Assembly (NCBI GenBank): GCA_963792215.1
Contig: CAWBVL010000007.1
Span: forward strand, 325,044-389,043
DNA from: an uncultured Actinomycetes bacterium
Lineage (GTDB): Bacteria > Actinomycetota > UBA4738 > HRBIN12
Direction: 5' to 3'
Length of the DNA stretch: 64,000 nucleotides
Shown here one piece after another: positions 1,922-21,568 of the stretch (the stretch's first letter is position 1; each line of letters begins with the position of its first letter). The position numbers and the translations under genes are program-made. The notes below the pieces were generated by a model that made no database searches, was not told where the DNA came from, and saw nothing but the letters and a program-made list of their open reading frames with translations.

Positions 1922-2737
1922 TCAGGTGACGGCGAGCGGGATCCTTCGGATCCCCGTGAACGAGCCCGAACGCAGCGGCTCATCGTCGATCTCGGCGTCC
2001 GAGAAGCCGGCGGCTCTGACCGCCTCGAGGATCGAGGCGCTCCCTTCGGTGGCCCGTGCGCGCGCGAGGTCGTCGTCGCCCAGCTCGACCTTGCCGAGGT
2101 CGCCGAGGTGGCGCACGCGAAGATCGCGGTATCCGAGCGCCTTGATCGCGGTCTCGGCGCGATCGATCTGCGCGAGCGTCGCCGGTTCCACCCCGGTGCC
2201 GTATGGCAGACGCGAGGCGAGGCACGGCATCGCCGGCTTGTCCGCGCTCGGGATCTCGAGCTCGGCCGCCGTCCGGCGGACGTCTTGCTTGCGGAAGTTC
2301 GCCTCGACGAGCGGGTGACGGACATCGTGCTCCGCCGCCGCGCGGAGGCCGGGACGCCAGTCACCGAGGTCGTCGACGTTGGCGCCGGAGAAGGTGGCTG
2401 CGAAGCCTTCGGCCGCGGCGAGTTCGGCGAGCCGGTCGTAGAGCTCGGACTTGCAGTGGTAGCAACGGTCGGCTGCGTTGCGGCGGTAGCCCTCACGGGC
2501 GAGCTCGTCGGTCAAGATCGCGCGGTGGGCGATGCCGACGGCGGCGGCGACCGCCCGCGCGCCGTCCAGCTCACCGGTCGCGAGGGCGGGCGAGACGGCC
2601 GTGACCGCGAGCGCCCGCTCCCCCAGGACGCGGCCGGCGACGGCCGCGACCAGCGACGAGTCGACGCCGCCGGAGAACGCGACCAGCGCGCTCGGCGCGG
2701 TGGCGATCGTTCCTTCAAGCTCAGCGAGCGTGGGCAT
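1922..2737 (-). CDS. larE: LarE, ATP-dependent sacrificial sulfur transferase (nickel-pincer cofactor synthesis)
   Basis: PP-loop motif VAFSGGVDSS, conserved Cys in DKPAMPCLASR, about 270 aa, adjacent to larC and larB. Confidence 0.85.
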   Translation of the reverse strand: MPTLAELEGTIATAPSALVAFSGGVDSSLVAAVAGRVLGERALAVTAVSPALATGELDGARAVAAAVGIAHRAILTDELAREGYRRNAADRCYHCKSELYDRLAELAAAEGFAATFSGANVDDLGDWRPGLRAAAEHDVRHPLVEANFRKQDVRRTAAELEIPSADKPAMPCLASRLPYGTGVEPATLAQIDRAETAIKALGYRDLRVRHLGDLGKVELGDDDLARARATEGSASILEAVRAAGFSDAEIDDEPLRSGSFTGIRRIPLAVT

Positions 2738-3917
2738 CTTCGATGTCCTGCGTTGCGGTGGCCGCGGCGAGCGCCTCGGCCCAGATCTGCTTGACCGGTC
2801 GGCCGGTCACCGCGGCGACCGCGGCGCAGTCGTCGTGCTCTGGCGCGACGTTCACGACCCGGCCGTCGAGCAGACCGATCTTGACGCGGACGGTGTGGCC
2901 GTCGATGTCGACCTCGCGCATCGCGCGGTCGAGCTCGTAGCGCTCGAGCCGTTGCACCCGCACCCCCAGCGTCGACGAGTTCGTGAGAAGCGTCTCGGCG
3001 AGCGTCCGCTCCTGATCCGGCCTGGCGAGGACACTGAGCAGCACACCCGGGCGGGCTTTCTTCATCTGGATCGGGACGGTCCACGCGTCGATCGCACCCG
3101 CGGTCATGCAGGCGTCGAGCACGTCGGGCACGAGCTCCGGAACGAGGTCGTCGACGTTTGCCTGAAGCAGGACCACGGCCGTGGTGGTCTGCGGCTCGTC
3201 GATCGCGTCGCCGATCGCGACCCGAACGATGTTGGGTCGAGAGGGGTGTTCGCGGGTTCCGACGCCGGTGCCGGTCGCGCGCAGCACCATCGCGGGGAGC
3301 TCGCCCCACGCATCGGCTGCCGTGACCACGATCGCCGCGCCCGTAGGCGTAACGAGCTCGCCGGGCGTGTCGACGCCGACCACCGGAACGCCGGCCAGCA
3401 GCGCCATCGTCGCCGGCGCCGGAAGCGGCATCACGCCGTGATCCATCTGGCCGATCCCACGGCCGAGCGGGACGGGCGCGCAGACGAGCCGTTCGATCTC
3501 GAGCGCGTCGAGCAGCGCGAAGACGCCGCAGATGTCGATCAGGGTGTCGTCGTCACCGAGCTCGTGCAGCACGACCTCGTTCCGATCGACACCGTGGACC
3601 GCGGCCTCGGCTCCGATCAGGCGATCGAGCGCATCGAGGGAACGCGAGCGGACACGTGGCGCCAACCGCGAGCCCGCGATGACCGCGCGCATCGCCTCGC
3701 CGGTGCGCCCGTGAGGCTCGGCCGACCGGACGTCCACATGCGTCGCGCGAAGGCGGGCGCGCACCGGTTGTGAGACGTCGAGACCGACGCCGTCGAGGCC
3801 GAGCGCGGCGATCGCCTCGTCGAGCGCGGACCGCGGTGCGCCCGCGTCCAACAGCGCGGCGAGCAGCATGTCGCCCGCCAGGCCGCCGACGGGGTCGACG
3901 TGGGCGACGCGGGTCAC
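2721..3917 (-). CDS. larC: LarC, nickel insertion protein (DUF111 family), single unsplit ORF
   Basis: N-terminus VAHVDPVGGLAGDMLLAALLDAG is typical of LarC. About 398 aa. Overlaps both larE and larB. Confidence 0.85.
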   Translation of the reverse strand: MTRVAHVDPVGGLAGDMLLAALLDAGAPRSALDEAIAALGLDGVGLDVSQPVRARLRATHVDVRSAEPHGRTGEAMRAVIAGSRLAPRVRSRSLDALDRLIGAEAAVHGVDRNEVVLHELGDDDTLIDICGVFALLDALEIERLVCAPVPLGRGIGQMDHGVMPLPAPATMALLAGVPVVGVDTPGELVTPTGAAIVVTAADAWGELPAMVLRATGTGVGTREHPSRPNIVRVAIGDAIDEPQTTTAVVLLQANVDDLVPELVPDVLDACMTAGAIDAWTVPIQMKKARPGVLLSVLARPDQERTLAETLLTNSSTLGVRVQRLERYELDRAMREVDIDGHTVRVKIGLLDGRVVNVAPEHDDCAAVAAVTGRPVKQIWAEALAAATATQDIEDAHAR

Positions 3918-4681
3918 GGCGCGCGCACCTCAGCGCGGCGTGCGATCCGGGCGGCGACCGATCCTGCGCCGAGGCCGTCGTCGATCCCGACCACCGCGAG
4001 CCCATCCGCACACGAGACGAGCATCGCGTTGAGCGCTGTCTCGCCTCCGTGCGCCGAGCCGTAGCCCACGCTGGTCGGCACGCCGATCACGGGACACGGC
4101 GCCAGCCCGCCGATCACGCTGGCGAGCGCGCCGTCCATCCCGGCGACCACCACGACGACGTCCGCGCGATCGAGGTCCGGGATCACCGGCGCGAGGCGAT
4201 GCAGCCCCGCGACGCCAACGTCCTCGTGCACGGTGACGTTGGTGCCGAGCAGGTCGGCGCGGATCCGTGCCTCGTGCACGACCGGACCGTCGGACGTCCC
4301 CGCGGAGACGATCAAGACCTGCCCGCGCTTCTCGATCGGCTCGCGCTCGGCCCACACGGCGCGCGCACGTTCGTCTTCGAGCGCCTCGGGAAGGACCTCT
4401 CGCACCGCCGCTCGCATCGGCTCGTCGGCGCGCGTGACGAGCACGCTGGACGCGCCCGCCTCGGCGAGCGCCAACGCGATCCGCGCGACCTGATCCGGCG
4501 TCTTGCCCGATCCGAGGACCACCTCGGGGGCGCCCTGCCGGAGCTCGCGATGGGTATCCACCCGCGCGAAGCCGAGGTCCCGGTACGGCAACTGTGCGAG
4601 CCGGTCTGCCGCATCCTTCGGATCGACGCCATGGTCGGCGACGGCCTCGAGGAGTTCCTCCAGCTGGCGGCGCGAGGTCAT
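3914..4681 (-). CDS. larB: LarB, nicotinic acid adenine dinucleotide carboxylase/hydrolase (PurE-like)
   Basis: PurE/AIR-carboxylase-like core (LIVSAGTSDGPVVHEA...VVVAGMDGALASVIGG). I chose ATG at 4681 (MTSRRQLEEL). Confidence 0.85.
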   Translation of the reverse strand: MTSRRQLEELLEAVADHGVDPKDAADRLAQLPYRDLGFARVDTHRELRQGAPEVVLGSGKTPDQVARIALALAEAGASSVLVTRADEPMRAAVREVLPEALEDERARAVWAEREPIEKRGQVLIVSAGTSDGPVVHEARIRADLLGTNVTVHEDVGVAGLHRLAPVIPDLDRADVVVVVAGMDGALASVIGGLAPCPVIGVPTSVGYGSAHGGETALNAMLVSCADGLAVVGIDDGLGAGSVAARIARRAEVRAP

Positions 4682-4718
4682 GCGGTCGAGTCTACGCCGC
4701 AGGCGGCATCGGCTTCCC

Positions 4719-5084
4719 TTACGGCAGATCGACGACGGCGCGCGCTCGAGCTTGCAAGGCAAGCGAACCCGGGACGAGCAACAACCCCGAGAACGTTCTG
4801 CGCACCGTCACGACCGCTTCCGTGGCGCCGGTCGCGCACGAACAATCCACCAGCTCGGTGCCGTTGTCTTCCGCGAACCGCGTCGCATCCGCGGTGGGAT
4901 CCCCGCTTCCGAGCGCAAGGTCCTGCGCAGCGGCGAGGGCGGCCGCGTCCGCCGCCGCCTCGGCGTGCGACCGTTCCACCAGGACTCGACCGACGTCCGC
5001 CACGCCCATCGTGCAGACGAGGGCGATGCAGATCGCGGCGGCGCACACGACCGATACCGACCCCCGCTGCGAGGTCCCGCTCAC
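4719..5084 (-). CDS. TadE-like pilus minor protein (Rv3654c family)
   Basis: N-terminal hydrophobic segment GSVSVVCAAAICIALVC. Last gene of the Tad operon. Confidence 0.65.
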   Translation of the reverse strand: MSGTSQRGSVSVVCAAAICIALVCTMGVADVGRVLVERSHAEAAADAAALAAAQDLALGSGDPTADATRFAEDNGTELVDCSCATGATEAVVTVRRTFSGLLLVPGSLALQARARAVVDLP

Positions 5085-7088: not shown

Positions 7089-8351
<1,263 letters not shown>

Positions 8352-8387
8352 GCGCGCCTCCGATCGCCGACGCGACGCGCCCCGCCC

Positions 8388-8834
8388 TCAGGACGTGATC
8401 GGGCTGAACGACGGGTCGGTAGTGCGCACCGTTCCGTTCGCTTCGAACAGCACCAGGAACGTCCGCGCTCGATAGCGCATCCCCGCGTCGACCCACTGTG
8501 CGCCGGTGAGACACGAGCCTCCCGGGGAGGAGGACGGAACGTCGTTGAACCCACACGATCGGCTCGCGAGCGTGGTCCACGAGAAGCCGTCCGCCGAGGA
8601 TTGCAGCGACACCGAGATGCTCATCTGCACCAGCTTGGTCGAGCCGTCGTAGTAGCCGCGCCCCTTGGCGGCGACCTGCCAGTCCGCGCTCCGGACGTAA
8701 CACGCCGATTGATGCCCGCCCGTCTTGGTCGTCTTCCACGCGCTGCAGCCGGTCCCCACGTTCGCGTGTGCCGATGTCGCGATCGCCATCGACGCGACGA
8801 TCACGACGGCGGTTGCGATCTGCCGTATCCGCAC
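8388..8834 (-). CDS. Secreted 4-Cys protein of unknown function, inserted inside the Tad locus
   Basis: Signal peptide MRIRQIATAVVIVASMAIATSAHA. The mature part has four Cys. I verified the frame codon by codon. GTG start. Confidence 0.6.
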   Translation of the reverse strand: MRIRQIATAVVIVASMAIATSAHANVGTGCSAWKTTKTGGHQSACYVRSADWQVAAKGRGYYDGSTKLVQMSISVSLQSSADGFSWTTLASRSCGFNDVPSSSPGGSCLTGAQWVDAGMRYRARTFLVLFEANGTVRTTDPSFSPITS

Positions 8835-8933
8835 CTGCTCCCCCTTCCGGTCCGTGCGCCCGGGAGCGGAGGGGGCGCCGGAGTCCGGCGCGACCGAGCA
8901 CCTGATCGACGAGGGAGAGGACGTCGAGGGCCG

Positions 8934-10028
8934 TCACGCGGCACCTCGGAGTTCAGCGGTGGAGGCGAGCAGCTGGTGACTCAGCCTCGCGATGGCGCGA
9001 GCCGCTCGCGCGCGCGGTGGCAGCAGCCGGCCGTGATCCTGCAGGCGGGGCACGGAGGCATCGACCGGGAGCACCGCGACCGGCGCGCGGCCGAACACCC
9101 GCTCGACGTCGGCGGGCACGACCTCGCCGCGCGCCGCCCGATTGACGACGAACGACGTCCGGTCTTCGACACCGTCTGGCGCGATCCGCGCAAGCGTTCG
9201 GACCGTCGCACGGAACGAGGCGATGTCGAGCGCGAGCACCTCGACGACGGCATCGGCGGCGCGGAGGCTCGCGCGCGTGACGGGGTCGGTCCCGAGCCCC
9301 GTATGCAGGACGACCACGTCGGTGGATGCAGCCGCGAGGTCCACGACACGCGCGACCGAGCGCTCCTCGGGCGCGGGCGTATCCGGCGGCGCCGCGACGA
9401 TCACGCCGAACCCTTCGTGGTGCGGGAACACGGTCTCGGTGAACGAACCGGGTGTCATCTCATCGACGACGTCGCAGAGTTCCGACACGGGGTGCAGTCC
9501 CGCCGTGCCGTCGACGATCCCGAGCGCCGTCGCGACGTCGCCGCCGAATGGGTCGACGTCGACGAGCACGACCGACCGGTCGGCCGACACCGCGGCTCGG
9601 GCCAGGTGCGTCGCGACGAAGGTGCAGCCCGCGCCGCCACGCGAGGCGTGCACCGCGATCACCGTCGCGCGCCGCTCGAGATGCTTCGCGCCGACCGCGA
9701 ACCCTTCGACGTGGGCAATCAAGCGGTCGCGCTCCTCAGGCCACACGGTGAAGCCTCGGACCCCTGCTTCGATCGCCGCGCGAAGCGCGGCGATCGACTC
9801 CCGGCTCGCGATCGCGATGCACGGCGTCGGGCCAGAGACGGCGCCGGCGAACCGCGGCTCGGCGATCACCAGGTCCGGCTCGAGCTGCGTGACCGCGTCG
9901 GCGATCTGCCGCTCGCCGTCGGCCGTGGCCACCACGCGCACGGCGCCGCTGCGGTCGAGGAAGTGCAGCACCTCGTCGAGCACCTCCGGCGCCTCGATCG
10001 CGAGGACCACGCGCGTCGACCGTTCCAT
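8934..10028 (-). CDS. TadZ/CpaE/Ssd-like protein (receiver-like N domain plus ParA/MinD-like ATPase)
   Basis: N-terminal receiver-like fold (RVVLAIEAPEVLDEV...DLVIAEP). Deviant P-loop SRGGAGCTFVATHLA. First gene of the Tad operon. Confidence 0.75.
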   Translation of the reverse strand: MERSTRVVLAIEAPEVLDEVLHFLDRSGAVRVVATADGERQIADAVTQLEPDLVIAEPRFAGAVSGPTPCIAIASRESIAALRAAIEAGVRGFTVWPEERDRLIAHVEGFAVGAKHLERRATVIAVHASRGGAGCTFVATHLARAAVSADRSVVLVDVDPFGGDVATALGIVDGTAGLHPVSELCDVVDEMTPGSFTETVFPHHEGFGVIVAAPPDTPAPEERSVARVVDLAAASTDVVVLHTGLGTDPVTRASLRAADAVVEVLALDIASFRATVRTLARIAPDGVEDRTSFVVNRAARGEVVPADVERVFGRAPVAVLPVDASVPRLQDHGRLLPPRARAARAIARLSHQLLASTAELRGAA

Positions 10029-10628: not shown

Positions 10629-12278
10629 CTAGGTGGTCTTCATGACCCCCTTCACGACATCCACCTTCGCACTGTCGCCGGCCGACCGAGCGATAAGCTT
10701 GAGCGAGCGCGATGCTCCATGGTGCGTCGTCTTGTTCGCCGAGATGGTGATCACGACGGTCCGCTGGCCGCCGGCCGGCACCGTCACCCAGTACGTTCCC
10801 GACGCGACGGTGGTCTTGATGCTATGGCCACCGGTCGCGTAGCTGATCGAGAAGCCGCCTCCAGAGGCGGACCCTCTCAGGAAGAACGAGTCGGTAACGT
10901 GGGCGTCGTTCTGCAGGTGGACGAAGAGGTGCTTCGTCCCGCCGGGCGCCATCTTGACGGTCCTGGCCTGGTTTGCCCCGGACATGTTGTAGATGCCATT
11001 GCCCGCGTAGCCGGCGCTCGCGTGCTTCGAGATCAGCAGGTCGGGCCGGTACTTAGGCGGGCTCCCTCCCGTCAGCGATTGCACCGTGATCGGGATGTGC
11101 CGATCGGTCTTGGTGCCGTCGCCGAGCTGCCCCCCGGTGCTGTCGATCGGCGCGAGGTTGTGCACACCGTGGTTCGCACCGAAGCACTTCACCGCGCCGG
11201 CGGTGGTCACCAGACAGGTCATGCCCGTCTTCTGGTAGCCACCGGCCGAGATCTGTTTGACGCCGGAGCCCGACCGGTACACGTGCACGGGCGAGCTACT
11301 GGCCTTGGTCTTCCCGTTCCCCAGCTCGCCGGATTCGTTCGCACCCCAGCACATAGCCGCACCGCCGGTCGTGACCGCGCAGGTGTGATTGAAGCCTGCG
11401 GAGATCGACTTCGCCGAAAGGCCGGTCACCGTCACCGGGTGGGTGCTGTCAATGGTCGTCCCATTACCGAGCTCGCCCGTGGTGTTGTTCCCCCAGCACT
11501 TCACCGCGCCGCCGGTCAACAGGGCGCAGGTGTGATCGAACCCGGCCGAGACGGCGGTCGCAGTGCCGCCGAGGCCGGTGACGTCGGTCGGGACCAGTCT
11601 GTCGCTCTTGGCGCCATCGCCGATCTCGCCGTGCTTCCCCTGGCCCCAGCACTTGACGCCACCGCCGGTCGTGACAGCACACGTGTGGTCCCAGCCGGCC
11701 GAGATCTGCGTGATGCCGCTCAGCCCGGTGTCAACCGGCGTCCGATGCGATTGCCTATCGCCGGTGCCGAGCTGTCCGTTGCCGTTATATCCCCAACACC
11801 AGACCGTGCCCGCGTTCTTGAGCGCGCAGCCGGAGTCGAAACCGAGGGAAACCTGCGCAACGCCGCTGGTCAGACCAACAACCTGGACAGGCGTCACCCG
11901 CTTGATCAGCGACCCGTCGCCGAGCTCGCCGTCGCCGTTGTGACCCCAGCACTTCACGGCGCCGCCGGTCGTCACGGCGCAGGAGTGATCCCAGACCGCC
12001 TGCACGTCCTTCACGCCAGCCTTCAGGCCCTTCACCGTGGTCGGCTTGAGCCGGTCGATCTTGGTGCCGTCGCCGACCATGCCGACGGCGTTGAAGCCCC
12101 AGCATCTCGCGACACCCGCCGTCGTGCGCACGCACGCGTGCACCGCTCCGGCAGAGACCGAGGAAACGTTGGTGGCTTGCGCGGCAGGCGCCGCGAAAAC
12201 AAGTGCGCCGGCTACCAAGCCGACGGCGGTGATGATGCGGGTCGTATGTGACCCGATCCGGGGGGTGGTGTGACGCAT
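10629..12278 (-). CDS. Secreted RCC1-repeat (7-blade beta-propeller) protein with C-terminal beta-sandwich-like domain
   Basis: Signal peptide ending AAQA. Seven C[WF]G[FHYQNA]N.G.LG repeats. ATG at 12278 follows GGAGGA. Confidence 0.8.
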   Translation of the reverse strand: MRHTTPRIGSHTTRIITAVGLVAGALVFAAPAAQATNVSSVSAGAVHACVRTTAGVARCWGFNAVGMVGDGTKIDRLKPTTVKGLKAGVKDVQAVWDHSCAVTTGGAVKCWGHNGDGELGDGSLIKRVTPVQVVGLTSGVAQVSLGFDSGCALKNAGTVWCWGYNGNGQLGTGDRQSHRTPVDTGLSGITQISAGWDHTCAVTTGGGVKCWGQGKHGEIGDGAKSDRLVPTDVTGLGGTATAVSAGFDHTCALLTGGAVKCWGNNTTGELGNGTTIDSTHPVTVTGLSAKSISAGFNHTCAVTTGGAAMCWGANESGELGNGKTKASSSPVHVYRSGSGVKQISAGGYQKTGMTCLVTTAGAVKCFGANHGVHNLAPIDSTGGQLGDGTKTDRHIPITVQSLTGGSPPKYRPDLLISKHASAGYAGNGIYNMSGANQARTVKMAPGGTKHLFVHLQNDAHVTDSFFLRGSASGGGFSISYATGGHSIKTTVASGTYWVTVPAGGQRTVVITISANKTTHHGASRSLKLIARSAGDSAKVDVVKGVMKTT

Positions 12279-12456
12279 GATGCGTGTTCCTCCTCTTCGT
12301 ATGTTCCGAGTCTGGCGACCCGAGGACTGCTGCTCCTGTACCCGCGTCGCGTGGAGCCACACCCTAGCTGCGAGATTCACGAAGGGACAAGGGCAGCCGA
12401 CTGGGTCGGGCCGGACGCCTTAGGACCAAAGCCGGGGTCGTCCTGCAGGGGAACCG

Positions 12457-13761
12457 ATGGACGCGCGGGGCGGTCACTCGCTCAGGCCCATGGCTAGCCT
12501 GACATCGATGACTGCGCGCGCGACGGTGCGACGGCGACCGCTCGCGTTCGGGGCGATGCTCGCGATCCTCGTCGTGGGCGGCGCGCTCGCGCTCGTCCGC
12601 ACGGATCGAGGCGAAGCCGCGCATCCCGCCTCGAGCGCGGCGCCCCCCTCGCTCGCCGCACCGAGCCAGCCCGCCGCGAGCACCGCCGACGAGTCGGCGC
12701 AGATGCCGGGCACATGGCTCGCGTGGATCACCGGCTCCTTACCGCCGGACGTCTCGACGAAGGCTGCGGCGACCTCGGCGCTGGGCACGACGGTGGTCGT
12801 CGCCGGCGATACCCGGTGGATGACCGCCTCGCACGACGACACGGGCTCGCTGGTGGACCGGCCGATGCCGCCGTACGAGATCCCGATCGACGCGTTCTCG
12901 GTCGACCCGCCGAGCTACGCGCCGTTCATCCCGCCGAACATGCGCGACGAGGTCACGTCCGCGCTCCGATCGGGTAAGGCGGTGCTCGGGACGTCGAGCG
13001 CGCAGCTCCGCCGCCTCGATGTCGGCGGCTCGATGACGTTCGGCTCGCGAACCGTGACGATCGGCGCGGTGGTGCCGGATGCCGTCGCCGGATGGAGCGA
13101 GATGCTGGTGTCGCGCGCGGTCGGGAAGTCGCTCGGGATCGTCGACGACCGCTACCTGCTCGCCCTGCCGCCGGGGCAGATGACGATGCAGCGGTTCGCC
13201 TCGACCATGCAGCGGATGATCCCGAACACGGCGATCCGCATGATGCCGCCGGGTGGGTCCACCTATATGCGGATCGCGTCGGGCGTGAACCCGCCCATCG
13301 TGATGAAGGAGATGTTCGGCGAGTTCTCCGCGTATCCGCAGAGCGCCGACCCCGCATACCTCAACGTCGATCCGGCCTGGTACGACGCGAACATCGCCAC
13401 GCGGACCGTCCCGATCCTCGGGCAGGTGACGTGCAACCGCCGCCTGTTCCCGATGCTGATCGGCGCGCTCACCGAGGTGGACCACGCCGGGCTCGGGAAC
13501 GAACTCCAGGTCTACTCTGGCTGCTACGCGGCGCGGACGGTGGCACGGAGCCCCACCGCACCCCCGTCGCAGCATGCGTACGGGGCCGCGATCGACATCA
13601 ACGCGCCCCAGAACCCGTACGGCGCACAGCCGACGATGGACCCGCGCATCGTGAAGATCTTCGAGCGCTGGGGCTTCATCTGGGGCGGGAAGTTCCTGAC
13701 GCCCGACGGGATGCACTTCGAGTACGGGTCCAGGCCGACGGCAAGCACAACCGGCGGATAG
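12457..13761 (+). CDS. Membrane-anchored M15-family (VanY/Peptidase_M15_4-like) zinc peptidase
   Basis: N-terminal TM. C-terminal SQHAYGAAID (H-x6-D) and WGGKFLTPDGMHFEY metal-ligand motifs. Start uncertain among Met codons at 12457-12510. Confidence 0.8.
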   Translation: MDARGGHSLRPMASLTSMTARATVRRRPLAFGAMLAILVVGGALALVRTDRGEAAHPASSAAPPSLAAPSQPAASTADESAQMPGTWLAWITGSLPPDVSTKAAATSALGTTVVVAGDTRWMTASHDDTGSLVDRPMPPYEIPIDAFSVDPPSYAPFIPPNMRDEVTSALRSGKAVLGTSSAQLRRLDVGGSMTFGSRTVTIGAVVPDAVAGWSEMLVSRAVGKSLGIVDDRYLLALPPGQMTMQRFASTMQRMIPNTAIRMMPPGGSTYMRIASGVNPPIVMKEMFGEFSAYPQSADPAYLNVDPAWYDANIATRTVPILGQVTCNRRLFPMLIGALTEVDHAGLGNELQVYSGCYAARTVARSPTAPPSQHAYGAAIDINAPQNPYGAQPTMDPRIVKIFERWGFIWGGKFLTPDGMHFEYGSRPTASTTGG

Positions 13762-13793
13762 CCCGTGTCCGAGGCTGGCGGTAGTCTCGCCCG

Positions 13794-14057
13794 ATGGCGG
13801 TGGTGACGCTCCGAGCCCCGTTGAAGGACCTCGCCGGGGGCAACCGCGACCTCGAGATCGCCGGCGACACGGTTGGCGACGTGCTCCGTACGCTCGAGTC
13901 GGCGTGGCCCAAGACCACCGGCTGGATCTTGGACGAGCACGGCGCCGTGCGTCGCCACGTGAACGTGTTCCGCAACGGTGAACGCGTCGACGCCGCGACC
14001 GCGCTCGACGCGAACGATCATCTCCAGGTGCTTCCGTCGATCACAGGGGGAACGTGA
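13794..14057 (+). CDS. MoaD/ThiS-family ubiquitin-like protein ending in GG-Thr
   Basis: 87 aa, beta-grasp-like pattern. C-terminus LPSITGGT, read directly from the codons. Confidence 0.8.
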   Translation: MAVVTLRAPLKDLAGGNRDLEIAGDTVGDVLRTLESAWPKTTGWILDEHGAVRRHVNVFRNGERVDAATALDANDHLQVLPSITGGT

Positions 14058-15118
14058 TGCCCGAACTGCTGGTGGGAACCAAGAAGGGTCTGTTCGTGTT
14101 GGCCGGCGACCGCCCCGACTCGTACCGGATCGCCACGCGCGCCTTCGCCGGCGACGTCGTCGAGTACGCGATCCGCGACCGGCGCACAAGGCGGTACTTC
14201 GCCTCGGTCACCTCCGGGTTCTACGGACCGCGGCTGATGTTCACCGACGACCCCGCGGGCGAGTGGCAGCAGGCGTCCGGCATCGCGTTCGCAGAGGGCG
14301 ACGACGTGTCGCTCGAGCGCATCTGGAAGGTCAAGGAGGGTGAGGCCGACGGCCAGTTGTGGGCCGGCACCGACCCCGCCGCGCTCTGGGAATCCCGCGA
14401 CGGCGGCGAGACATGGTCGCGCAACGAAGCGCTCTGGAAGGAGCGGATCGCGGGCGACTGGCAGCCCGGGCTCGGCGGCCTCGCGCTGCACTCGATCTGC
14501 CCGTGGCCCGGCGATCCGATGAAGCTCGCGATCGCGATCTCCGCCGCCGGCGTGTGGATCACCGACGACGGCGGCGAGTCCTGGCGCACCGGCTACACCG
14601 GGTTGGTGCCCGAGTACATGCCGGAAGAGTCCCGCGCCGATACGAACGTGCTCTGCGTCCACAACATGCATCGCGCGCCGGCGAAGCCCGAGCGGCTGTT
14701 CATGCAGTTCCACGGCGGCGTGTACCGCAGCGACGACCAAGGCGAAACGTGGAACGACATCCACGACGGGCTCCCTTCGCCATTCGGATTCCCGTTGGTG
14801 ACCGACCCTGCGGACCCCGACAGCGCGTTCCTGATCCCGATGACGGGGGCCGAAGATCGCGTCGTGCCGGGAGGGTCGCTCGGCGTATTCGGCACCCGCG
14901 ACGCGGGCACGACCTGGTCGCCACAGGGCGACGGCCTCCCGACCGACGCGTACGTGACGATCCTGCGTCAGGCGCTGGACCGGGACGGTGAGGGCGACGG
15001 GATGGGGCTGTTCTTCGGCGCCACGTCCGGCGAGGTCTTCGGCTCTGCCGACGCCGGGCGCTCCTGGTTCACGGTCGCGCCGCGGCTGGCGCCCGTGACG
15101 AGCGTGCGGGTCGCGTGA
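14054..15118 (+). CDS. Cytoplasmic BNR/Asp-box beta-propeller protein (sialidase-like fold, no signal peptide)
   Basis: Five Asp-boxes (SRDGGETW, TDDGGESW, SDDQGETW, TRDAGTTW, SADAGRSW). Its start overlaps the MoaD-like stop (GTGATG). Confidence 0.8.
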   Translation: MMPELLVGTKKGLFVLAGDRPDSYRIATRAFAGDVVEYAIRDRRTRRYFASVTSGFYGPRLMFTDDPAGEWQQASGIAFAEGDDVSLERIWKVKEGEADGQLWAGTDPAALWESRDGGETWSRNEALWKERIAGDWQPGLGGLALHSICPWPGDPMKLAIAISAAGVWITDDGGESWRTGYTGLVPEYMPEESRADTNVLCVHNMHRAPAKPERLFMQFHGGVYRSDDQGETWNDIHDGLPSPFGFPLVTDPADPDSAFLIPMTGAEDRVVPGGSLGVFGTRDAGTTWSPQGDGLPTDAYVTILRQALDRDGEGDGMGLFFGATSGEVFGSADAGRSWFTVAPRLAPVTSVRVA

Positions 15119-15168
15119 CCGCGAGGAGCGATTACCCCGTGTCAGACCACCGTCCTATGGTGGTCGGT

Positions 15169-15417
15169 ATGGGAGAAGTCGTCTCGCTGGAGAACTACCG
15201 CGACCAGGTGCTCGCGCCGCGCGAGATGCTCAGCCGCCTCGACGATGCGGTCGCGAAGCTCGATCCCCTCGTACGCGCACACGCCTCAGCCATCTCGCCG
15301 ACGGTAGAGCGTGAGCTCCGCGCGATCGCGATCGCGGTCAACGCCGGCCGTCCGCGCCAGGCGGCGCGCCGCGCCGAGCGGCTCGCCGGGCTCCTCCAGC
15401 ACCCCGCTTCGGGCTGA
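15169..15417 (+). CDS. Small helical hypothetical protein
   Basis: Strong G/C third-position bias in this frame. No recognisable motif. Confidence 0.45.
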   Translation: MGEVVSLENYRDQVLAPREMLSRLDDAVAKLDPLVRAHASAISPTVERELRAIAIAVNAGRPRQAARRAERLAGLLQHPASG

Positions 15418-15463
15418 TCGCTCCCGGCCGGAGCGCAGGGCCGCCGTAGACTCGCCGACTGAC

Positions 15464-16693
15464 ATGGATGCGCTGGAACGGCGCGCGCTCATCCGCGGCC
15501 TGGTGACGTTCGTCGCGGTGGCGTTGATCGGGTCGACCATCGTGTGGCTCGGCGGCCGCACCGACGCGGGCTCCTCGCCTCCATCCTCTTCCGCAGGCCC
15601 TTCGACCAGCGCATCGGTTCCCGTCCCGACGCCCGAGGCCTGGCTCGCCTGGGTGCCGGGTGGCCTGCCGGCGGGCTTCGGCGACCTCGTGAGCACCGTC
15701 CCCGACGTCACCCAGGCAACCACCGCGACCGCCGACATCGCGTGGATAACGGCCTCGCTCGACGCGAACGGCGACGGCGTGGATCAACCCCAGCCGCCGG
15801 ACATGATCCCGATGGACACGACGGGCGTGGATCCGACGTTCGCGGGGTTCCTGCCCGAGCCCGAGCGTCAGCTCGTGCAGAACCTCCAGCCCGGCCAAGG
15901 GATCTTGTCCGAGTCCGAAGCCAACCTCCGAGGCCTCGGGACCGGCGCGACGCTCCTGTTCCACGGCGACCAACAGGTGGACATCGTCGGCACCCTGCCC
16001 GACGCGCTGATGGGTGCCTACGAGCTGCTGGTTCCGCGTGCGACCGGCCTGAAGATCGGCGTCACGACCGAGCGCTACGTCCTGTTCCACGTCAAGCCCA
16101 ACGCGACGGTCACCGTGAACGATCTGATCCCGGCCTTCCGCGACCTGCTTCCCGTCCAGACGGCATTTCCAGCCGTCGAGGTCCGCGCGCCGGGTGACAC
16201 GCAGTATCTACGAGCCAACGACCGAGTGATGCCGCCCCTGTACCTCAAGGAGACGTTCGGCGAGTTCGAGGCGCACCCCGACAACAGCAAGCCCGGTCAC
16301 ATCGCCATCGAGCAGAGATGGATCCAGGACCACATCGTGTCGGCCACGATCCCCGTCCTCGGGACGATCGTCTGCAACGCCGACATCGTGCCCCTGTTGA
16401 AGCACGCCATGCATGCGATCTCCACGGCCGGCCAGGCGTCGTCGATCACCGACGTCGGAGAATGCTTCGACGCTGTGTCGACGCCACACGACCCCTCCGG
16501 TCCGCTCACACCGGCCGACTGGGGCGTCTCGATCCAACTGAACCCTTCATCCAACCCGCCGGGCGAGCAACCGACGATGCCGAAGTCGGTCATCCAAGAG
16601 ATGTACAAGGTCGGGTTCGGCTGGGCGGGCAACGATGCGTATCCGCAGGGATCGTTGTTCCGGTATCGGACCGTCAGCGCGGCGCGCGACTAG
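15464..16693 (+). CDS. Degenerate (catalytically dead) paralog of the M15 peptidase at 12457
   Basis: Same TM/linker/middle-domain/C-domain layout and many shared blocks (WLAW, ETFGEFEAHP vs EMFGEFSAYP, GEQPTM vs GAQPTM). All three metal-ligand positions are replaced. Confidence 0.75.
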   Translation: MDALERRALIRGLVTFVAVALIGSTIVWLGGRTDAGSSPPSSSAGPSTSASVPVPTPEAWLAWVPGGLPAGFGDLVSTVPDVTQATTATADIAWITASLDANGDGVDQPQPPDMIPMDTTGVDPTFAGFLPEPERQLVQNLQPGQGILSESEANLRGLGTGATLLFHGDQQVDIVGTLPDALMGAYELLVPRATGLKIGVTTERYVLFHVKPNATVTVNDLIPAFRDLLPVQTAFPAVEVRAPGDTQYLRANDRVMPPLYLKETFGEFEAHPDNSKPGHIAIEQRWIQDHIVSATIPVLGTIVCNADIVPLLKHAMHAISTAGQASSITDVGECFDAVSTPHDPSGPLTPADWGVSIQLNPSSNPPGEQPTMPKSVIQEMYKVGFGWAGNDAYPQGSLFRYRTVSAARD

Positions 16694-16924: not shown

Positions 16925-17728
16925 TCACGCGACGGCGCGTCGTTCACGCGCGCGCAGCGACACCCACACAAGCACACCGGCGACCGCTGCGGCGCCGACC
17001 GCGGCCGCCGCGACACCCGCGCGCTTCGGCGGCACGGCGTCTGCGATGCGTGAGCGCAACCGCACGGGGTTGCGGAAGTTGCGGATCTCCCACTCGCGAG
17101 CCTCGGCGATGTGCCGGAGGTCGCGATCGGGATTGACCGCGACGGGATGGCCGACGGCCTTGAGCATCGGCACGTCGGTCACGGAGTCGGAGTACGCGAA
17201 CGACCCCTCGAGGTTGATGCGCTGACGGCGTGCGAGCGACCGGATCGCGTCGGCCTTCTGCTCGCCGTAGGCGTAGAACTCGAGCTCGCCCGTGTAGCGA
17301 TTGTCGGGACCGACCGCCGCGCGCGTCGCGATCACGCCCGACACGCCGAAGTGCGCCGCGAGTGGGCGCACGACCTCTTCGGGCGACGACGACACGATGT
17401 AGATGCGCCGCCCCGCCGCCTGATGCTCGGCGATGAGGTCGAGCGCCTCTTGGTACACGAACGGGTCGATCACCTCGAGTATCACGTCGTGGACGAGCCG
17501 CTCGACCTGCGTGCGATCCCAGCCCTTCGTCAGCTGGAGCATGCCCTCTTTGAGCTTCTCCATCCGCGACTCGTCGGCGCCGATCAGCAGGTAGACGAGC
17601 TGGGCGTAGGCGCCGCGCATGAGCTGGCCGCGCGAGACCATGCCGGCTCGGTACAACGGCCGCCCGAGGGCGAGCGAGGACGACCGGCTTATGATCGTCT
17701 TGTCGAGGTCGAAGAACGCGGCTTCCAT
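16925..17728 (-). CDS. HAD-IB family hydrolase (SerB-like) with C-terminal TM tail
   Basis: Motif I FFDLDKT, motif IVSSSP, motif YSDSVTDVPML. ATG at 17728 (alternative GTG at 17749). Confidence 0.8.
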   Translation of the reverse strand: MEAAFFDLDKTIISRSSSLALGRPLYRAGMVSRGQLMRGAYAQLVYLLIGADESRMEKLKEGMLQLTKGWDRTQVERLVHDVILEVIDPFVYQEALDLIAEHQAAGRRIYIVSSSPEEVVRPLAAHFGVSGVIATRAAVGPDNRYTGELEFYAYGEQKADAIRSLARRQRINLEGSFAYSDSVTDVPMLKAVGHPVAVNPDRDLRHIAEAREWEIRNFRNPVRLRSRIADAVPPKRAGVAAAAVGAAAVAGVLVWVSLRARERRAVA

Positions 17729-17845
17729 CGTCGTCCAATCGTAGGTCACGTATCCGACGGGACCGAGAACGTCATCGGTCGGTTCGGCCGCGACCCTGAC
17801 CCGGCGGTTCGGCCGCCTCCCCGGCGCCCCGGTAGCCTTGGCGCC

Positions 17846-17938
17846 GGAGGCGTCAGGGTTCCTGGTGGGCCTCGCGGTCTTCAAAACCGTTGAGGGGGCG
17901 ACGAGCTCCCTGGCGGGTTCGATTCCCGTCCGCCTCCG
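17846..17938 (+). tRNA. selC: tRNA-Sec (anticodon UCA)
   Basis: Hand-folded. Acceptor GGAGGCG/CGCCTCC, 6-bp D stem, anticodon loop CTTCAAA (TCA at 17881-17883). Long variable arm (7-bp stem, 5-nt loop), T loop TTCGATT, discriminator G. CCA is not encoded. Confidence 0.85.
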
Positions 17939-17999
17939 CTCTCGCGTGGTCCGCTCCAGGGGCTGCGCGCTCGCCTGGAACGACCTACGCTTCGGGCCG

Positions 18000-18803
18000 A
18001 TGTCGACTGCCGAAGAAGAGTGGAAGGCCCTCCTGAGCGGGGAATTCGGGGAGACTCGCCACAAGAGTCCCTTGCGCCTCATCCCGTCGAACCCCCGCTG
18101 CAAACTCTGCAAAGCGCCGTTCCGCGCGCCGGGGAACCTGCTCCTGCGGCCGTTCGGCTTCAAGCCCTGGCCGAAGAACCCCAACATCTGCGGCCGCTGC
18201 TTCACGGAGATGGACAGGCACGCGAAGCGGTGCCCCTCGCCGCTCGACGATAAGGCGGTCGCGGGTGCCGAGGTCGAACTCTCGATGTTGTTCGCTGACG
18301 TGCGCGGCTCGAGCAAGATCGCGCGACAGATGTCCGTCACGGAGTTCACGCGCTTGATGAGCCGCTTCTATGACGTCTCCAAGAGGGTGCTCTTCGAGGC
18401 CGATGCGATCCTGGAGAAGTTCGTCGGCGACGAGGTCGTCGCACTCTTCCTGCCGTTCTTGACCGGCCCCGACCACGCGGGCGTCGCGCTGCAGGCGGCG
18501 CAGGACCTGCTCCGCGCGACCGGACACGGCGATCCGAACGGACCGTGGGCGCCGCTCGGCGCCGCGGTCCACACCGGCACAGCGTTCGTCGGGATCGTCG
18601 GCTCGAGAGGCTCGAGCGATTTCACCGCCTTGGGCGACCCGATGAACTTGACCGCTCACCTCGCGTCGCAGGCGGCGATCGGCGAGATCTTGGTGACCGA
18701 GGCGGCGATGCGTTCCGCGGGACAACCCCTCGACCGCCTGGAGCACCGGCACCTGTCGCTGAAGGGGTATCCGACGGACGCGGTCGTCTACCAGGTGTCG
18801 TGA
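18000..18803 (+). CDS. Class III adenylate/guanylate cyclase with N-terminal zinc-ribbon
   Basis: CKLCK...CGRC ribbon, then the cyclase core LSMLFADVRGSS...KFVGDEVVALF...GDPMNLTAHL. I chose ATG at 18000 because the upstream ORF part overlaps tRNA-Sec. Confidence 0.8.
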   Translation: MSTAEEEWKALLSGEFGETRHKSPLRLIPSNPRCKLCKAPFRAPGNLLLRPFGFKPWPKNPNICGRCFTEMDRHAKRCPSPLDDKAVAGAEVELSMLFADVRGSSKIARQMSVTEFTRLMSRFYDVSKRVLFEADAILEKFVGDEVVALFLPFLTGPDHAGVALQAAQDLLRATGHGDPNGPWAPLGAAVHTGTAFVGIVGSRGSSDFTALGDPMNLTAHLASQAAIGEILVTEAAMRSAGQPLDRLEHRHLSLKGYPTDAVVYQVS

Positions 18804-21568
18804 GCGCGGTCGCGCGAGCCCTCAAGATCCACGCCGGTGAACGCCGGGTCGCCGTGTCCTTGATCGCGCTGTCGTTCATCGTGATGGCCGGCCAGGTGAT
18901 CGGGCAGAGCGCCGCGACCGCGCTGTTCTTCGACCGCGTCGGTACGGACGCGTTGCCCACCGTCTATCTGTTGCAAGGCGCGAGCTGCCTCGTGCTGATG
19001 CTGGTGATGACGGGCGCGCTGGGGCGAACCGATCAACGCCGCGCCTTCTTGGTGATGGGCGCTGGTCTCACCGTCGTCGTGTTCGCGGAACGGGTCGCAC
19101 TGATCGGCGGCGCGAGGTGGACCTACTGGGTGTTGTGGCTGACGGTCGCGCTCGCCGTATTGGTCCAGACGGTGTTCCTGTGGGGGATCGCCGGGATGGT
19201 GACCGACACCCGACAGGCAAAGCGGCTGTTCCCGTTGTTCGCGGCCGGCGGGATCCTCGGGTCGGTCCTGGGCGGGCTCGTGACCGCCCCGCTCGTACAC
19301 CTGGTCGGCGCGGCGAACCTGCTGTTGGCCTGGGGCATCACCCTGGTCGCGGCGTTGGCGCTCGCTCGATGGATCCTGCCGCCCGCGGCGCACCGCACGA
19401 TCCGGCGACCATCGCGCGCGGGACCCGTTGCGGACCTCGTGTCGGCGCTTCGGTACGTGATGCGGTCACGACTGCTCGTCTGGATGACCTTGGCCGCCGT
19501 GCTGTTCTCGGTGCTCTTCTACTCCTTGTTCCTGCCGTGGGCCGCGGCGGCCGCAGCCCATTACCCAACCACCGACGGGGTGGCCGCATTCATCGGGTTG
19601 TTCTCGGCCGTGACGACCGCCGCCGCGTTCCTCATATCCGCCGGCCTGACGAACCGGCTGTTCGTCCGGTTCGGGATCGCGCTGGCCGTCCTGGTCCTGC
19701 CGCTGTTGTACGTCGGCTCTTTCGGCATCCTCCTGGTGACCTCGACGTTCGCGGTGCTGGTCGGCGTGCGCGCGGCGACCGGGATCTGGCTGCAAGGGGT
19801 CGCGTCCCCTGCGTGGGAGACGCTCACCAACGTCGTTCCCTCCGACCGCCGCGACCAGGTGCGCACGTTCTTGAACGGTGGACCGTCGCAGGCCGGCACC
19901 GCGATCGCGGGCGTGATCGCGCTGGTCGGCACCAACGTGCTGACACCGCGGCAGCTGACCATGGTCGGGTTGGTCACCGCGATCCTGACGCTCGCGGTCA
20001 CCTGGGCGATCAAGCGCTCGTACGCGACGGCCTTGGTCGACGCCCTCCGGGCAGGGCGGCCGGTGTTCACAGACGAAGCGAGCCGCGTGGCGCCGTTCGC
20101 GCTGGACGGCGACGCCCAGGCGATCGACACGGTGCTGGCTGCTGCGGAGGACCCGAGCGCGTCGGTTCGCCGGCTGGCGGTGCAGATGCTCGCCGGGCTC
20201 GACGACGAGCGAGCACGCGACCGGCTTCGCGCGGCCCTCGACGATGCGGATCCAGGTGTGGTCGCCCTCGCCGCTGCATCGCTCGCCGGAACCGACACGG
20301 CGGTCGCCGAGCGACTTCGCGCGCTCGCGACGGACGCCGATCCCGGTGTGCGCGCCTCGACGTTGGCCGCACTCACGGTCGCGCCTGCGAACGTCGGCGG
20401 GCCCATCGCTTCGGGCGCGATCGCCGACCCGGAGCCTATGGTCCGTGCCGCCGCGCTGCGCGCGCTGGCCGGCCTCGATCCAGAGCTCGCGCGCGCGCCC
20501 GCGATCGCGCTGATGCAGGATCCGAGCGCGGTTGTCCGCCATGCGGCAGCGCGCGCGGCGGCCGGCGTCGCCGACGGAATGGTGCCCGCGCTGCTCGACG
20601 CCCTCCACGAGCCGCTCGCTCAAGATGCCGCGCTCGACGCGCTCTCGCATCTCACCATCGGTGACCACACCGCTGAGGTGGACGACTTCGCGACCGGGCT
20701 GCTCGCCGACGCGGCGCGAGATCGTGATCTGGCCGACGCGCTGACCGACGACGACGACGCCACCGTCTTGCTCCGCGACGCGGTCCTCGCACGCGGCCGG
20801 GCCACCGGACGCACGGCGTTCCGCGCCCTATCGCTGACGCATGAGGACGGCGCCTCGCTTCGCGCCGCGATCGAGAACCTCGACTCCGCGGACGGCGCGC
20901 AGGCGGCGACCGCGCTCGAGACCCTCGAGTCGACAAGCGCGCAGACATCGATCCGGCCGTTGATCCCGCTGTGGGACCGATCCGAGGCCGGGCACCACGA
21001 CGGTGCGGCCGATGCGGTCGAGCGCGCGGCCCACGACCCCGACCCGTTCATCGCGATGTGCGGCGAGCTGGTCCTACGCAACGGTGCCACCACACGAACG
21101 GAAGGAACCTCGATGGACGTCCACACCACGATGCCGGCGATGGAACGTGTGCTCTTCCTCCGGAAGGTGCCGTTGTTCGACGAGCTCGCACCCGCCGACC
21201 TGTTGCCGATCGCCGAGGTCGCCGACGAGCAGCGCTTCGCCGACGGGGACCGCCTCGGCGACGAAGGCGAGATGGGCGACGGCATGCACGTCATCGTCGC
21301 CGGCTCCGTGCACGTGCGGAGCGGCGACGAGACGATCGCCGAACGCGGGCCCGGCGACGTCGTCGGCGAGCTCTCGCTGATCACCGCCCGCCCGCGGATG
21401 GCCGACCTGATCGCCGACGGCGACGTCCGCACGATCTGGATCACGCGCCGCGCGTTCGAAGGGATGGTGCACGATCGCCCCGACGTCGCGATCGGCGTGA
21501 TGCGGGTGCTCGCGACGCGTCTGGGCGAACACGCGCGCGACCGGGCCACGCAGCACCCTCGCGCCTGA
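18800..21568 (+). CDS. Polytopic membrane (MFS-like) domain fused to HEAT repeats and a C-terminal cyclic-nucleotide-binding domain
   Basis: About 12 hydrophobic helices. Repeated D.D..VR..A..AL HEAT units. cNMP-binding core FLRKVPLFDEL...GDVVGELSLI...RMADL. GTG at 18800 overlaps the cyclase stop (GTGA). Confidence 0.75.
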   Translation: MSAVARALKIHAGERRVAVSLIALSFIVMAGQVIGQSAATALFFDRVGTDALPTVYLLQGASCLVLMLVMTGALGRTDQRRAFLVMGAGLTVVVFAERVALIGGARWTYWVLWLTVALAVLVQTVFLWGIAGMVTDTRQAKRLFPLFAAGGILGSVLGGLVTAPLVHLVGAANLLLAWGITLVAALALARWILPPAAHRTIRRPSRAGPVADLVSALRYVMRSRLLVWMTLAAVLFSVLFYSLFLPWAAAAAAHYPTTDGVAAFIGLFSAVTTAAAFLISAGLTNRLFVRFGIALAVLVLPLLYVGSFGILLVTSTFAVLVGVRAATGIWLQGVASPAWETLTNVVPSDRRDQVRTFLNGGPSQAGTAIAGVIALVGTNVLTPRQLTMVGLVTAILTLAVTWAIKRSYATALVDALRAGRPVFTDEASRVAPFALDGDAQAIDTVLAAAEDPSASVRRLAVQMLAGLDDERARDRLRAALDDADPGVVALAAASLAGTDTAVAERLRALATDADPGVRASTLAALTVAPANVGGPIASGAIADPEPMVRAAALRALAGLDPELARAPAIALMQDPSAVVRHAAARAAAGVADGMVPALLDALHEPLAQDAALDALSHLTIGDHTAEVDDFATGLLADAARDRDLADALTDDDDATVLLRDAVLARGRATGRTAFRALSLTHEDGASLRAAIENLDSADGAQAATALETLESTSAQTSIRPLIPLWDRSEAGHHDGAADAVERAAHDPDPFIAMCGELVLRNGATTRTEGTSMDVHTTMPAMERVLFLRKVPLFDELAPADLLPIAEVADEQRFADGDRLGDEGEMGDGMHVIVAGSVHVRSGDETIAERGPGDVVGELSLITARPRMADLIADGDVRTIWITRRAFEGMVHDRPDVAIGVMRVLATRLGEHARDRATQHPRA

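Follow-up and report, generated by a model that had tools for sequence, protein, structure and literature searches.

A putative membrane-anchored M15 peptidase and its conserved pseudoenzyme paralog, both with a predicted MacB-type domain, in uncultured Actinomycetota

In a 64,000-nucleotide (nt) stretch of DNA from an uncultured Actinomycetes bacterium (assembly GCA_963792215.1, contig CAWBVL010000007.1; hereafter the window, ~70% GC, with positions counted from its first letter), a gene for an apparently intact M15-type peptidase, copy A, is followed three genes later by a paralog, copy B, that is a conserved pseudoenzyme under purifying selection despite its lost catalytic site. The two genes begin and end a row of five that runs head to tail on the plus strand at 12.4-16.7 kb: copy A, a ThiS-like gene, a BNR propeller gene, an open reading frame (ORF) of 100 amino acids (aa) and copy B. 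From its sequence, copy A is best read as an LAS/M15-class zinc peptidase, a relative of VanY and Ply500 that is tethered to the membrane in type-II fashion and lies outside the cytoplasm. The features of the two copies are as follows.

12457-13761, plus strand: copy A, 434 aa, with a 32-nt gap to the ThiS/MoaD-like gene
12541-12597, plus strand: transmembrane helix of A, residues 29-47, with an RRR motif before it (Kyte-Doolittle 19-residue maximum 2.56)
12706-13326, plus strand: middle domain of A, residues ~84-290, predicted MacB-type periplasmic core fold (Foldseek, and MacB_PCD in relatives)
13327-13731, plus strand: predicted M15/LAS zinc peptidase domain of A, residues ~291-425
13573-13575, 13594-13596 and 13714-13716, plus strand: codons of the ligands H373, D380 and H420 of A; the catalytic residue is D417
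15464-16693, plus strand: copy B, 409 aa, the final gene of the row
15488-15544, plus strand: transmembrane helix of B, residues 9-27, after a conserved short cytoplasmic tail, MDxLxRRALxRG
15635-16267, plus strand: MacB_PCD-like middle domain of B, residues ~58-268, with many invariant motifs specific to B
16268-16672, plus strand: degenerate M15 domain of B, residues ~269-403
16514-16516, 16535-16537 and 16655-16657, plus strand: ligand-equivalent codons of B, A351, Q358 and L398; Q395 stands at the position of the catalytic Asp

In a BLASTP comparison copies A and B share 32% identity over 347 aa (E 1e-64), well past chance, and both consist of an N-terminal membrane helix, a disordered Pro/Ala/Ser linker (predicted local distance difference test score, pLDDT, below 50 in both models), a middle domain of ~205 residues and a C-terminal M15 domain. 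The Pfam family Peptidase_M15_4 (PF13539) is matched by A only, at residues 370-423 (57.2 bits against a curated cutoff of 25), and a Pfam scan of B returns no family at E <= 0.1. A preliminary description of this DNA, made from its letters, had proposed a pair of active and dead M15 paralogs of common layout, and both parts of that proposal are borne out.

The loss of the catalytic site was followed in a joint alignment of 105 orthologues of A and 111 orthologues of B. H373, D380 and H420 are invariant in all 105 A orthologues and none of the 111 B orthologues has a His at either His column, the three columns of B being occupied by A, R, S, K and others, by Q, E, L, D and others, and mostly by L (L, F or R), respectively. 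In the window, H373, D380, D417 and H420 of A correspond to A351, Q358, Q395 and L398 of B, so that the motif PSQHAYGAAIDIN...PDGMHFEY of A reads LTPADWGVSIQLN...PQGSLFRY in B, and the column of the catalytic Asp417 is Gln in more than 90% of the B orthologues. The exchanges His to Ala, Asp to Gln and His to Leu, which had been noted before together with the proposal that pairwise and profile alignments be used to look for mis-assigned columns, hold up in both kinds of alignment: when a profile of the A family is used, H373/D380/H420 align with the SNH..D..PHFE zinc motif of the L-Ala-D-Glu peptidase Ply500 (2vo9, E 0.017), so that the ligand assignment is no artefact of alignment. Blocks that are invariant in A (YSGCYAARTVAR, SxHxxGxAxD and APPSxHAYGAAIDINAP) are lost in B, where a Gly/Pro/Trp/Cys skeleton is left, and no conserved replacement His, Asp or Cys lies near the lost ligands. 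Having lost its three zinc ligands along with the catalytic Asp and the substrate-site residues that are invariant in A, B cannot be a metallopeptidase.

A and B have one hydrophobic helix each and the three genes between them have none. This distribution suggests that A and B are anchored in the membrane with their domains outside and that the ThiS-like, BNR and 100-aa ORF proteins are cytoplasmic. The basic residues before the helices point, by the positive-inside rule, to an orientation of A and B with the N-terminus inside and the C-terminus outside.

The preliminary description had given copy B as an ORF of 15311-16693. This is its longest ORF; the most likely start, however, is the ATG at 15464, given that a protein in the database (P0121) shows the identical sequence from this Met onwards and that the 100-aa ORF fills the upstream part. 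From this start, more than 100 orthologues, none with a Pfam domain, keep an intact frame of 403-415 aa down to 47% identity. The AlphaFold model of B has a pLDDT of 87.9, and Foldseek finds LAS folds among its matches (LysB4, 6akv, E 0.015, target template-modelling (TM) score 0.34; Ply500, 2vo9, E 0.049, target TM 0.44). The ratio of nonsynonymous to synonymous substitution rates (dN/dS, omega) was calculated by the method of Nei and Gojobori for nine orthologue pairs. The ranges quoted here are those of seven pairs; for each of the four cells, the two comparisons with the window that gave the largest omega are left out, namely the comparison with L007 (0.27-0.48) and that with L002 for the middle domain or L005 for the M15 domain; in distant pairs dS is near 1, which makes them less reliable, and close pairs agree with them. 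Omega is 0.07-0.23 in the middle domain of B versus 0.15-0.32 in that of A, and 0.14-0.39 in the dead M15 domain of B versus 0.10-0.21 in the M15 domain of A.

It is highly improbable that B is a decaying gene or an enzyme that uses other residues. Its ligand columns vary as they would after loss of catalytic constraint and its dead domain evolves somewhat faster than that of A, but the intact frame in so many diverged orthologues, the confidently predicted fold, an omega well below 1 in all regions and the disappearance of three ligands and the catalytic Asp without a conserved replacement nearby all speak against both versions of this idea, and dN/dS together with conservation led us to reject a pseudogene.

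Copy A has 576 homologues, most of 410-423 aa, and its orthologues suggest M12 (12490) or M18 (12508) as alternative starts. The pLDDT of its AlphaFold model is 82.4. The 50 best PDB matches of this model in Foldseek contain no M15 structure, two unnamed viral proteins are matched at E about 1e-6, and a phmmer search of PDB sequences with the C-terminal domain gave no match. The nearest solved relative of the A-family profile is the Ply500 structure named above, a relation so remote (E 0.017) that the bond cleaved by A cannot be inferred from it; family membership points to peptidoglycan stem peptides as the likely substrate. In one close relative (L025, 4373-5626) the A gene has two out-of-frame stretches, which include the region of the zinc site, beside an intact B gene and among neighbours 82-96% identical to those of the window; either a mistake in the assembly or genuine decay of A may be the cause.

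As judged from the structure models, the middle domain of A and B is a MacB-type (MacB/Lol) periplasmic core domain. The model of A matches the periplasmic domains of LolE (5udf), LolC, MacB (3ftj), LolCDE, HrtB and BceB at E 1.6e-5 to 1e-3 (probability 1.0, target TM 0.50-0.54, 204-223 columns), with LolE 5udf and MacB 3ftj at E 1.6e-5 to 7e-5 over 204-218 columns, and the model of B matches MacB 3ftj (E 6.6e-8) and YknZ 5f9q (target TM 0.56) as well as YbbP and LolCDE. For both models at least the 17 top structure matches belong to the MacB-type superfamily, and the aligned region extends over the Sabre-containing domains of MacB and LolC/E in their full length of ~200 residues. In sequence searches, Pfam MacB_PCD (PF12704) has no match in A or B themselves and a profile of the middle domain found only noise among PDB sequences. 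MacB_PCD is the commonest weak match in close members of the family (8/43, best E 0.0077) and is significant in 15 of 88 distant representatives (best E 4e-11; P0271, E 1.2e-4). Because the middle-domain profile of the window matches all 88 representatives at E <= 3e-31, those that match both profiles argue by transitivity for homology to MacB_PCD.

The preliminary description had suggested a MacB/FtsX-type middle domain and had proposed structure prediction as a check. Structure prediction and the MacB_PCD matches in relatives uphold the MacB part of this suggestion, but not the FtsX part: the domain fits Sabre-containing folds, the periplasmic domain of FtsX is absent, as judged from the hit lists, from the top 50 PDB matches of both models, and neither A nor B matches the FtsX family (PF02687), each having a single helix and not a four-helix permease. 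Binding of activators by FtsX depends on the X-lobe, which only FtsX has and which takes the place of the Sabre subdomain (PMC7668044). Given that the domain found here is of the MacB/Lol type, the further idea that a cell-wall hydrolase is fused to a domain that normally regulates one is not supported. Force transmission as in MacB is implausible, given the disordered linker, the one helix and the lack of a permease or ATPase; permease and ABC (ATP-binding cassette) ATPase families have no match among the scanned neighbor genes at 1.9-25.7 kb. Below its MacB-family matches, the model of A (12706-13326) also has weak matches to double-psi beta-barrels (E 0.15-1, 70-85 columns), among them the N domain of VCP/p97 and designed proteins of this fold, which may reflect a small barrel-like subdomain or noise.

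In a scan of one genome per species, 388 relatives were found and the best 77 loci were analysed. The closest relatives of the window are soil metagenome-assembled genomes (MAGs) labelled Actinomycetota or uncultured Actinomycetes, and the order A, ThiS, BNR, 100-aa ORF, B and, on the minus strand, HAD is kept in about 20 MAGs with identities of A down to about 50%. The gene at the position of B has degenerate and variable ligand triplets in 23 loci (AEL, ALL, AQL, KEL, RAL, RVL, RDR, QEL, VEL and others) and an intact HDH triad in loci L019, L024, L048, L052 and L060. A neighbor-joining tree groups the dead copies in one clade, to which the intact copy of L060 is sister, the A copies in a second and tandem upstream copies in a third. 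This topology, which is only indicative, suggests an old duplication followed by a single loss of catalysis. Co-occurrence across genomes, which had been named earlier as something to check, is one-sided: an A-type gene is present in every genome of the scan with a dead B, in four of them on another contig (L062/L010, L067/L008, L072/L033 and L073/L027), and A often occurs without B.

The middle-domain profile was also searched against 1.84 billion representative proteins, which gave 564 clusters at 50% identity, of which 150 were listed. Most of the matches listed are about 400 aa long with the domain in the same position, and no bridge to true MacB or FtsX permeases appears among these 150 matches of 564. 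The small number of clusters and the uniform size and layout of those listed suggest a separate, compact family, which is confined to poorly studied, mostly uncultured Actinomycetota. Among 88 full-length representatives, M15_4 is present in 78 and an N-terminal zf-HC2 anti-sigma zinc finger in nine. Two relatives, P0282 (L078, 188-2208), with intact ligands, and P0332 (L079, 1374-3258), with H/A/R in the ligand columns, lie directly after genes for extracytoplasmic function (ECF) sigma factors and overlap their stop codons; zf-HC2 and this overlap suggest sigma/anti-sigma pairs with the MacB_PCD-M15 module outside the cell. This arrangement of zf-HC2 with an adjoining ECF sigma gene is seen in those two relatives and not in A or B. 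Ligands have been lost independently in P0306 and P0333 as well.

Modules of this kind also occur in pairs. Three database proteins (P0025, P0026 and P0080) have two complete active modules in one chain. In P0025 (L080, about 600-2951) an in-frame upstream extension missed by the called start places a single transmembrane helix before the two modules, which are joined by a Pro/Ala/Glu linker, and 3.4 kb downstream there is a ThiS-BNR pair. By clade, the fused modules are of the third and the A type, which in other genomes are adjacent separate genes; adjacent tandem copies are found in L026, L032 and L035.

Combining the structure predictions with the genomic data, we tentatively suggest, at a likelihood that we place a little below even, that B works non-catalytically with A as a partner or regulator at the outer face of the membrane. 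In this model, (i) A would trim or cleave peptidoglycan stem peptides outside the cell, with its catalytic domain packed against a MacB-type domain that has left the ABC-transporter context, (ii) the A-B pair would form via the transporter-type domains, the degenerate peptidase domain or both, and (iii) B would control the time, the place or the strength of wall cleavage by A. The model draws on the pairing of modules in two-module fusions and tandem copies, on the conserved synteny and co-occurrence of A and B, on the action of MacB-type periplasmic domains as homo- or heterodimers, as in MacB dimers and LolC/LolE (PMC7668044), and on the precedent of Csd1 and Csd2. These are LAS-family paralogs, of which Csd1 is active and Csd2 has an incomplete set of ligands and no metal; the two heterodimerise by way of their non-catalytic domains (PMC5053510). 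By analogy with these systems, physical contact between A and B would underlie the putative regulation. Because the substrate-site residues of A are lost in B, plain binding of stem peptides by B is less likely and a role in protein contact is favored. In general terms, a role for B as a non-enzymatic partner or sensor is probable, and a role as an activator like those of degenerate LytM (dLytM) factors would be a reasonable analogy.

Several observations weigh against such a partnership. A-type genes are common without B (L006, L015, L016, L028 and others), so that B is dispensable for A in many lineages, and the two genes can lie apart from each other (L072, L073). In the natural fusions, the partner of A is not B but a paralog from another clade that is still active, and the anti-sigma relatives, one of them catalytically dead, indicate that this module can work as a receptor on its own. 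The activity and substrate of A, on which the model builds, follow from family membership only. Finally, the covariation of A and B rates in a mirror-tree comparison of 13 genomes is no higher than that of unrelated neighbors (partial r 0.18), a result that we set aside as evidence either way because the 13 genomes are related.

Alternatively, B could be an autonomous non-catalytic receptor or scaffold for a wall-derived ligand or another protein, and its closeness to A only inherited synteny. We regard this explanation, the main rival, as less likely than a partnership, although several of the findings above would fit it: the same module forms the extracytoplasmic part of ECF anti-sigma factors (the nine zf-HC2 proteins of 88, with P0282 and P0332), ligands were lost several times independently (P0306, P0333, P0332), the middle domain of B has invariant motifs of its own and is under stronger constraint than the rest of B, some genomes have A and B on separate contigs, and the rates of the two do not covary. 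B, however, has only about 8 residues before its transmembrane helix and no cytoplasmic signalling domain, no sigma factor or other signalling gene is found among the scanned neighbor genes of A and B, A accompanies the dead B in every genome seen, and the loss of the substrate-site residues of A makes it unlikely that B binds muropeptides in the old groove.

The three genes between A and B are the following.

13794-14057, plus strand: ThiS/MoaD-like gene, 87 aa, overlapping the BNR gene by 4 nt
14054-15118, plus strand: BNR/Sortilin-like propeller, 354 aa, overlapping the 100-aa ORF by 4 nt
15115-15417, plus strand: unannotated ORF, 100 aa, with a 46-nt gap to copy B

The first encodes a beta-grasp protein like ThiS, MoaD and SAMP1 (PF02597, E 2.6e-8; NCBIfam SAMP1, 58.6 bits against a cutoff of 60) that ends in ITGGT, and its orthologues end in I[ST]GG plus 0-3 residues, i.e. 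in a diglycine, in some cases capped in the manner of ubiquitin-like carriers that require processing. The propeller matches PF15902 and PF02012, has no transmembrane helix, and its gene stands beside the ThiS-like gene in most related loci; the ThiS-like protein, in turn, is always paired with a cytoplasmic BNR propeller, a pairing on which the literature searches made found nothing relevant. The 100-aa ORF, which is translationally coupled to the BNR gene and was overlooked in the preliminary description, has no family match in Pfam or NCBIfam and follows BNR in about 45 loci by tblastn, some of them without B. The cassette is also found in loci where A is several kilobases distant and where B is missing or an unrelated gene has taken its place (L006, L015, L016, L028 and L029). 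The preliminary description had regarded the MoaD-like and BNR genes as an insert between the paralogs; they belong instead to a conserved three-gene cytoplasmic cassette that is kept more widely than the flanking pair, which rules out an insert splitting a tandem pair. The active copies at the position of B in L019, L024, L048, L052 and L060, which fall outside the dead-B clade of the neighbor-joining tree, speak against that idea as well.

It has also to be considered that A, B and the cassette form one system, e.g. a cytoplasmic pathway coupled to wall remodelling via the tail of B. The layout is tight and operon-like, with gaps of 32 and 46 nt and two 4-nt overlaps, its order is kept across about 20 genomes, and the short cytoplasmic tail of B is conserved. 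The strongest hint comes from pairwise distances, which agree better between the 100-aa ORF and B than between any other two genes (raw r 0.89, partial r 0.62), but this covariation comes from the same 13 genomes, which are not independent. Given that the cassette is common without an adjacent A and without B, and that its proteins have neither a transmembrane helix nor a signal sequence whereas the domains of A and B are outside the cell, we consider a single system improbable; the cassette probably shares only a transcript, not a mechanism, with A and B.

The minus-strand neighbor on the 5' side of copy A, which is divergent from it, encodes an RCC1-repeat protein (10629-12380, 583 aa; RCC1-like domain, E 1.5e-95) with a hydrophobic N-terminal stretch and an additional C-terminal region, and is kept upstream of A only in the closest relatives (L001-L004, L013 and L025). 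The convergent neighbor on the 3' side of copy B encodes a HAD-IB hydrolase. A tRNA-Sec (17846-17937, plus strand; Rfam RF01852, 73.8 bits against a gathering score of 47) lies in the stretch that extends the long minus-strand ORF 16925-18349 at its 5' end, which suggests that the real HAD-IB gene is shorter (about 16925-17800). This tRNA is the sole match of an Rfam scan of 10-19 kb, which found no regulatory RNA; promoter and terminator scans of 12.2-17 kb returned zero sites, which is uninformative in an actinobacterium of 70% GC. The wider context (1922-4807 and 7089-10028 on the minus strand, 18545-21568 on the plus strand) contains genes for the nickel-pincer cofactor (a LarC-type Ni insertion protein, an AIR-carboxylase-like LarB and an ATP-pyrophosphatase-like LarE), Tad-type secretion genes (a CpaF-like ATPase and a TadZ/ParA-like protein) and a 1007-aa protein with a TLC-type transporter region, HEAT repeats and a cyclic-nucleotide-binding domain.

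The control of peptidoglycan hydrolases is a central problem of bacterial growth, and most of what is known about it comes from FtsEX-type transporters and degenerate LytM factors in model organisms. That degenerate LAS domains act as regulators and that periplasmic domains of transporters control hydrolases is already known in principle; limited literature searches turned up neither a fusion of MacB_PCD with M15 nor an active/dead pair of M15 proteins. In a wider scenario, which we consider doubtful, a MacB-type core domain escaped from ABC transporters and became a built-in pairing or regulatory module of M15 wall peptidases in a previously undescribed actinobacterial family, in which modules are paired as active-active, as fusions or as active-dead and also serve as wall sensors of ECF anti-sigma factors, and in which B would gate A without an ATPase.

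Compared to M15 peptidases of the LAS fold (VanY-type D-Ala-D-Ala carboxypeptidases, Ply500 and LysB4), A has the SxHxxGxAxD ... DxxH motif and the PF13539 match, and the C-terminal domain of the B model appears still to superpose on the LysB4 and Ply500 endolysin domains. Unlike these, the catalytic domain of A and B is preceded by the ~205-residue MacB-type domain and a membrane anchor, a combination that, to our knowledge and in the literature searches made, characterised M15 enzymes lack. The fold of the whole middle domain is that of the core domains of type VII ABC transporters (MacB, LolC/LolE, YknZ, YbbP, BceB and HrtB). In A and B, however, in contrast to every characterised member, this domain does not lie between TM1 and TM2 of a four-helix permease but follows one N-terminal helix and a disordered Pro/Ala/Ser linker.

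FtsEX with EnvC, PcsB, RipC or CwlO resembles the pair described here in bringing together a transporter-type periplasmic domain and a peptidoglycan hydrolase in one functional unit. FtsEX is linked to the hydrolase non-covalently, in an ATP-driven manner and via the FtsX-specific X-lobe (PMC7668044). In contrast, the link in A and B is covalent, there is no ATPase, and the fold matches Sabre-containing domains. If our interpretation is correct, a transporter-type periplasmic domain is used here without a transporter and has a hydrolase as its direct fusion partner.

Csd1-Csd2 of Helicobacter pylori and the dLytM factors EnvC, NlpD and DipM parallel A and B in that a metallopeptidase is accompanied by a ligand-deficient relative kept for a non-catalytic role; B shares with dLytM factors and Csd2 the combination of lost ligands and a domain under selection. 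These factors have M23/LytM domains, whereas A and B are M15-type and have no Peptidase_M23 match, and EnvC and NlpD activate amidases and not a paralog of their own. If B is a partner of A, the solution of keeping a dead paralog as a partner would here be found in M15, not M23, proteins.

Finally, ECF anti-sigma factors with an extracytoplasmic sensor, e.g. RsiV, are resembled by the relatives with zf-HC2 directly after ECF sigma genes, which imply that the module can serve as a sensor on the outside. A and B differ from them in having neither zf-HC2 nor another cytoplasmic domain. The wiring of these relatives to ECF sigma factors suggests that a module built on the same plan as A and B can report the state of the wall.

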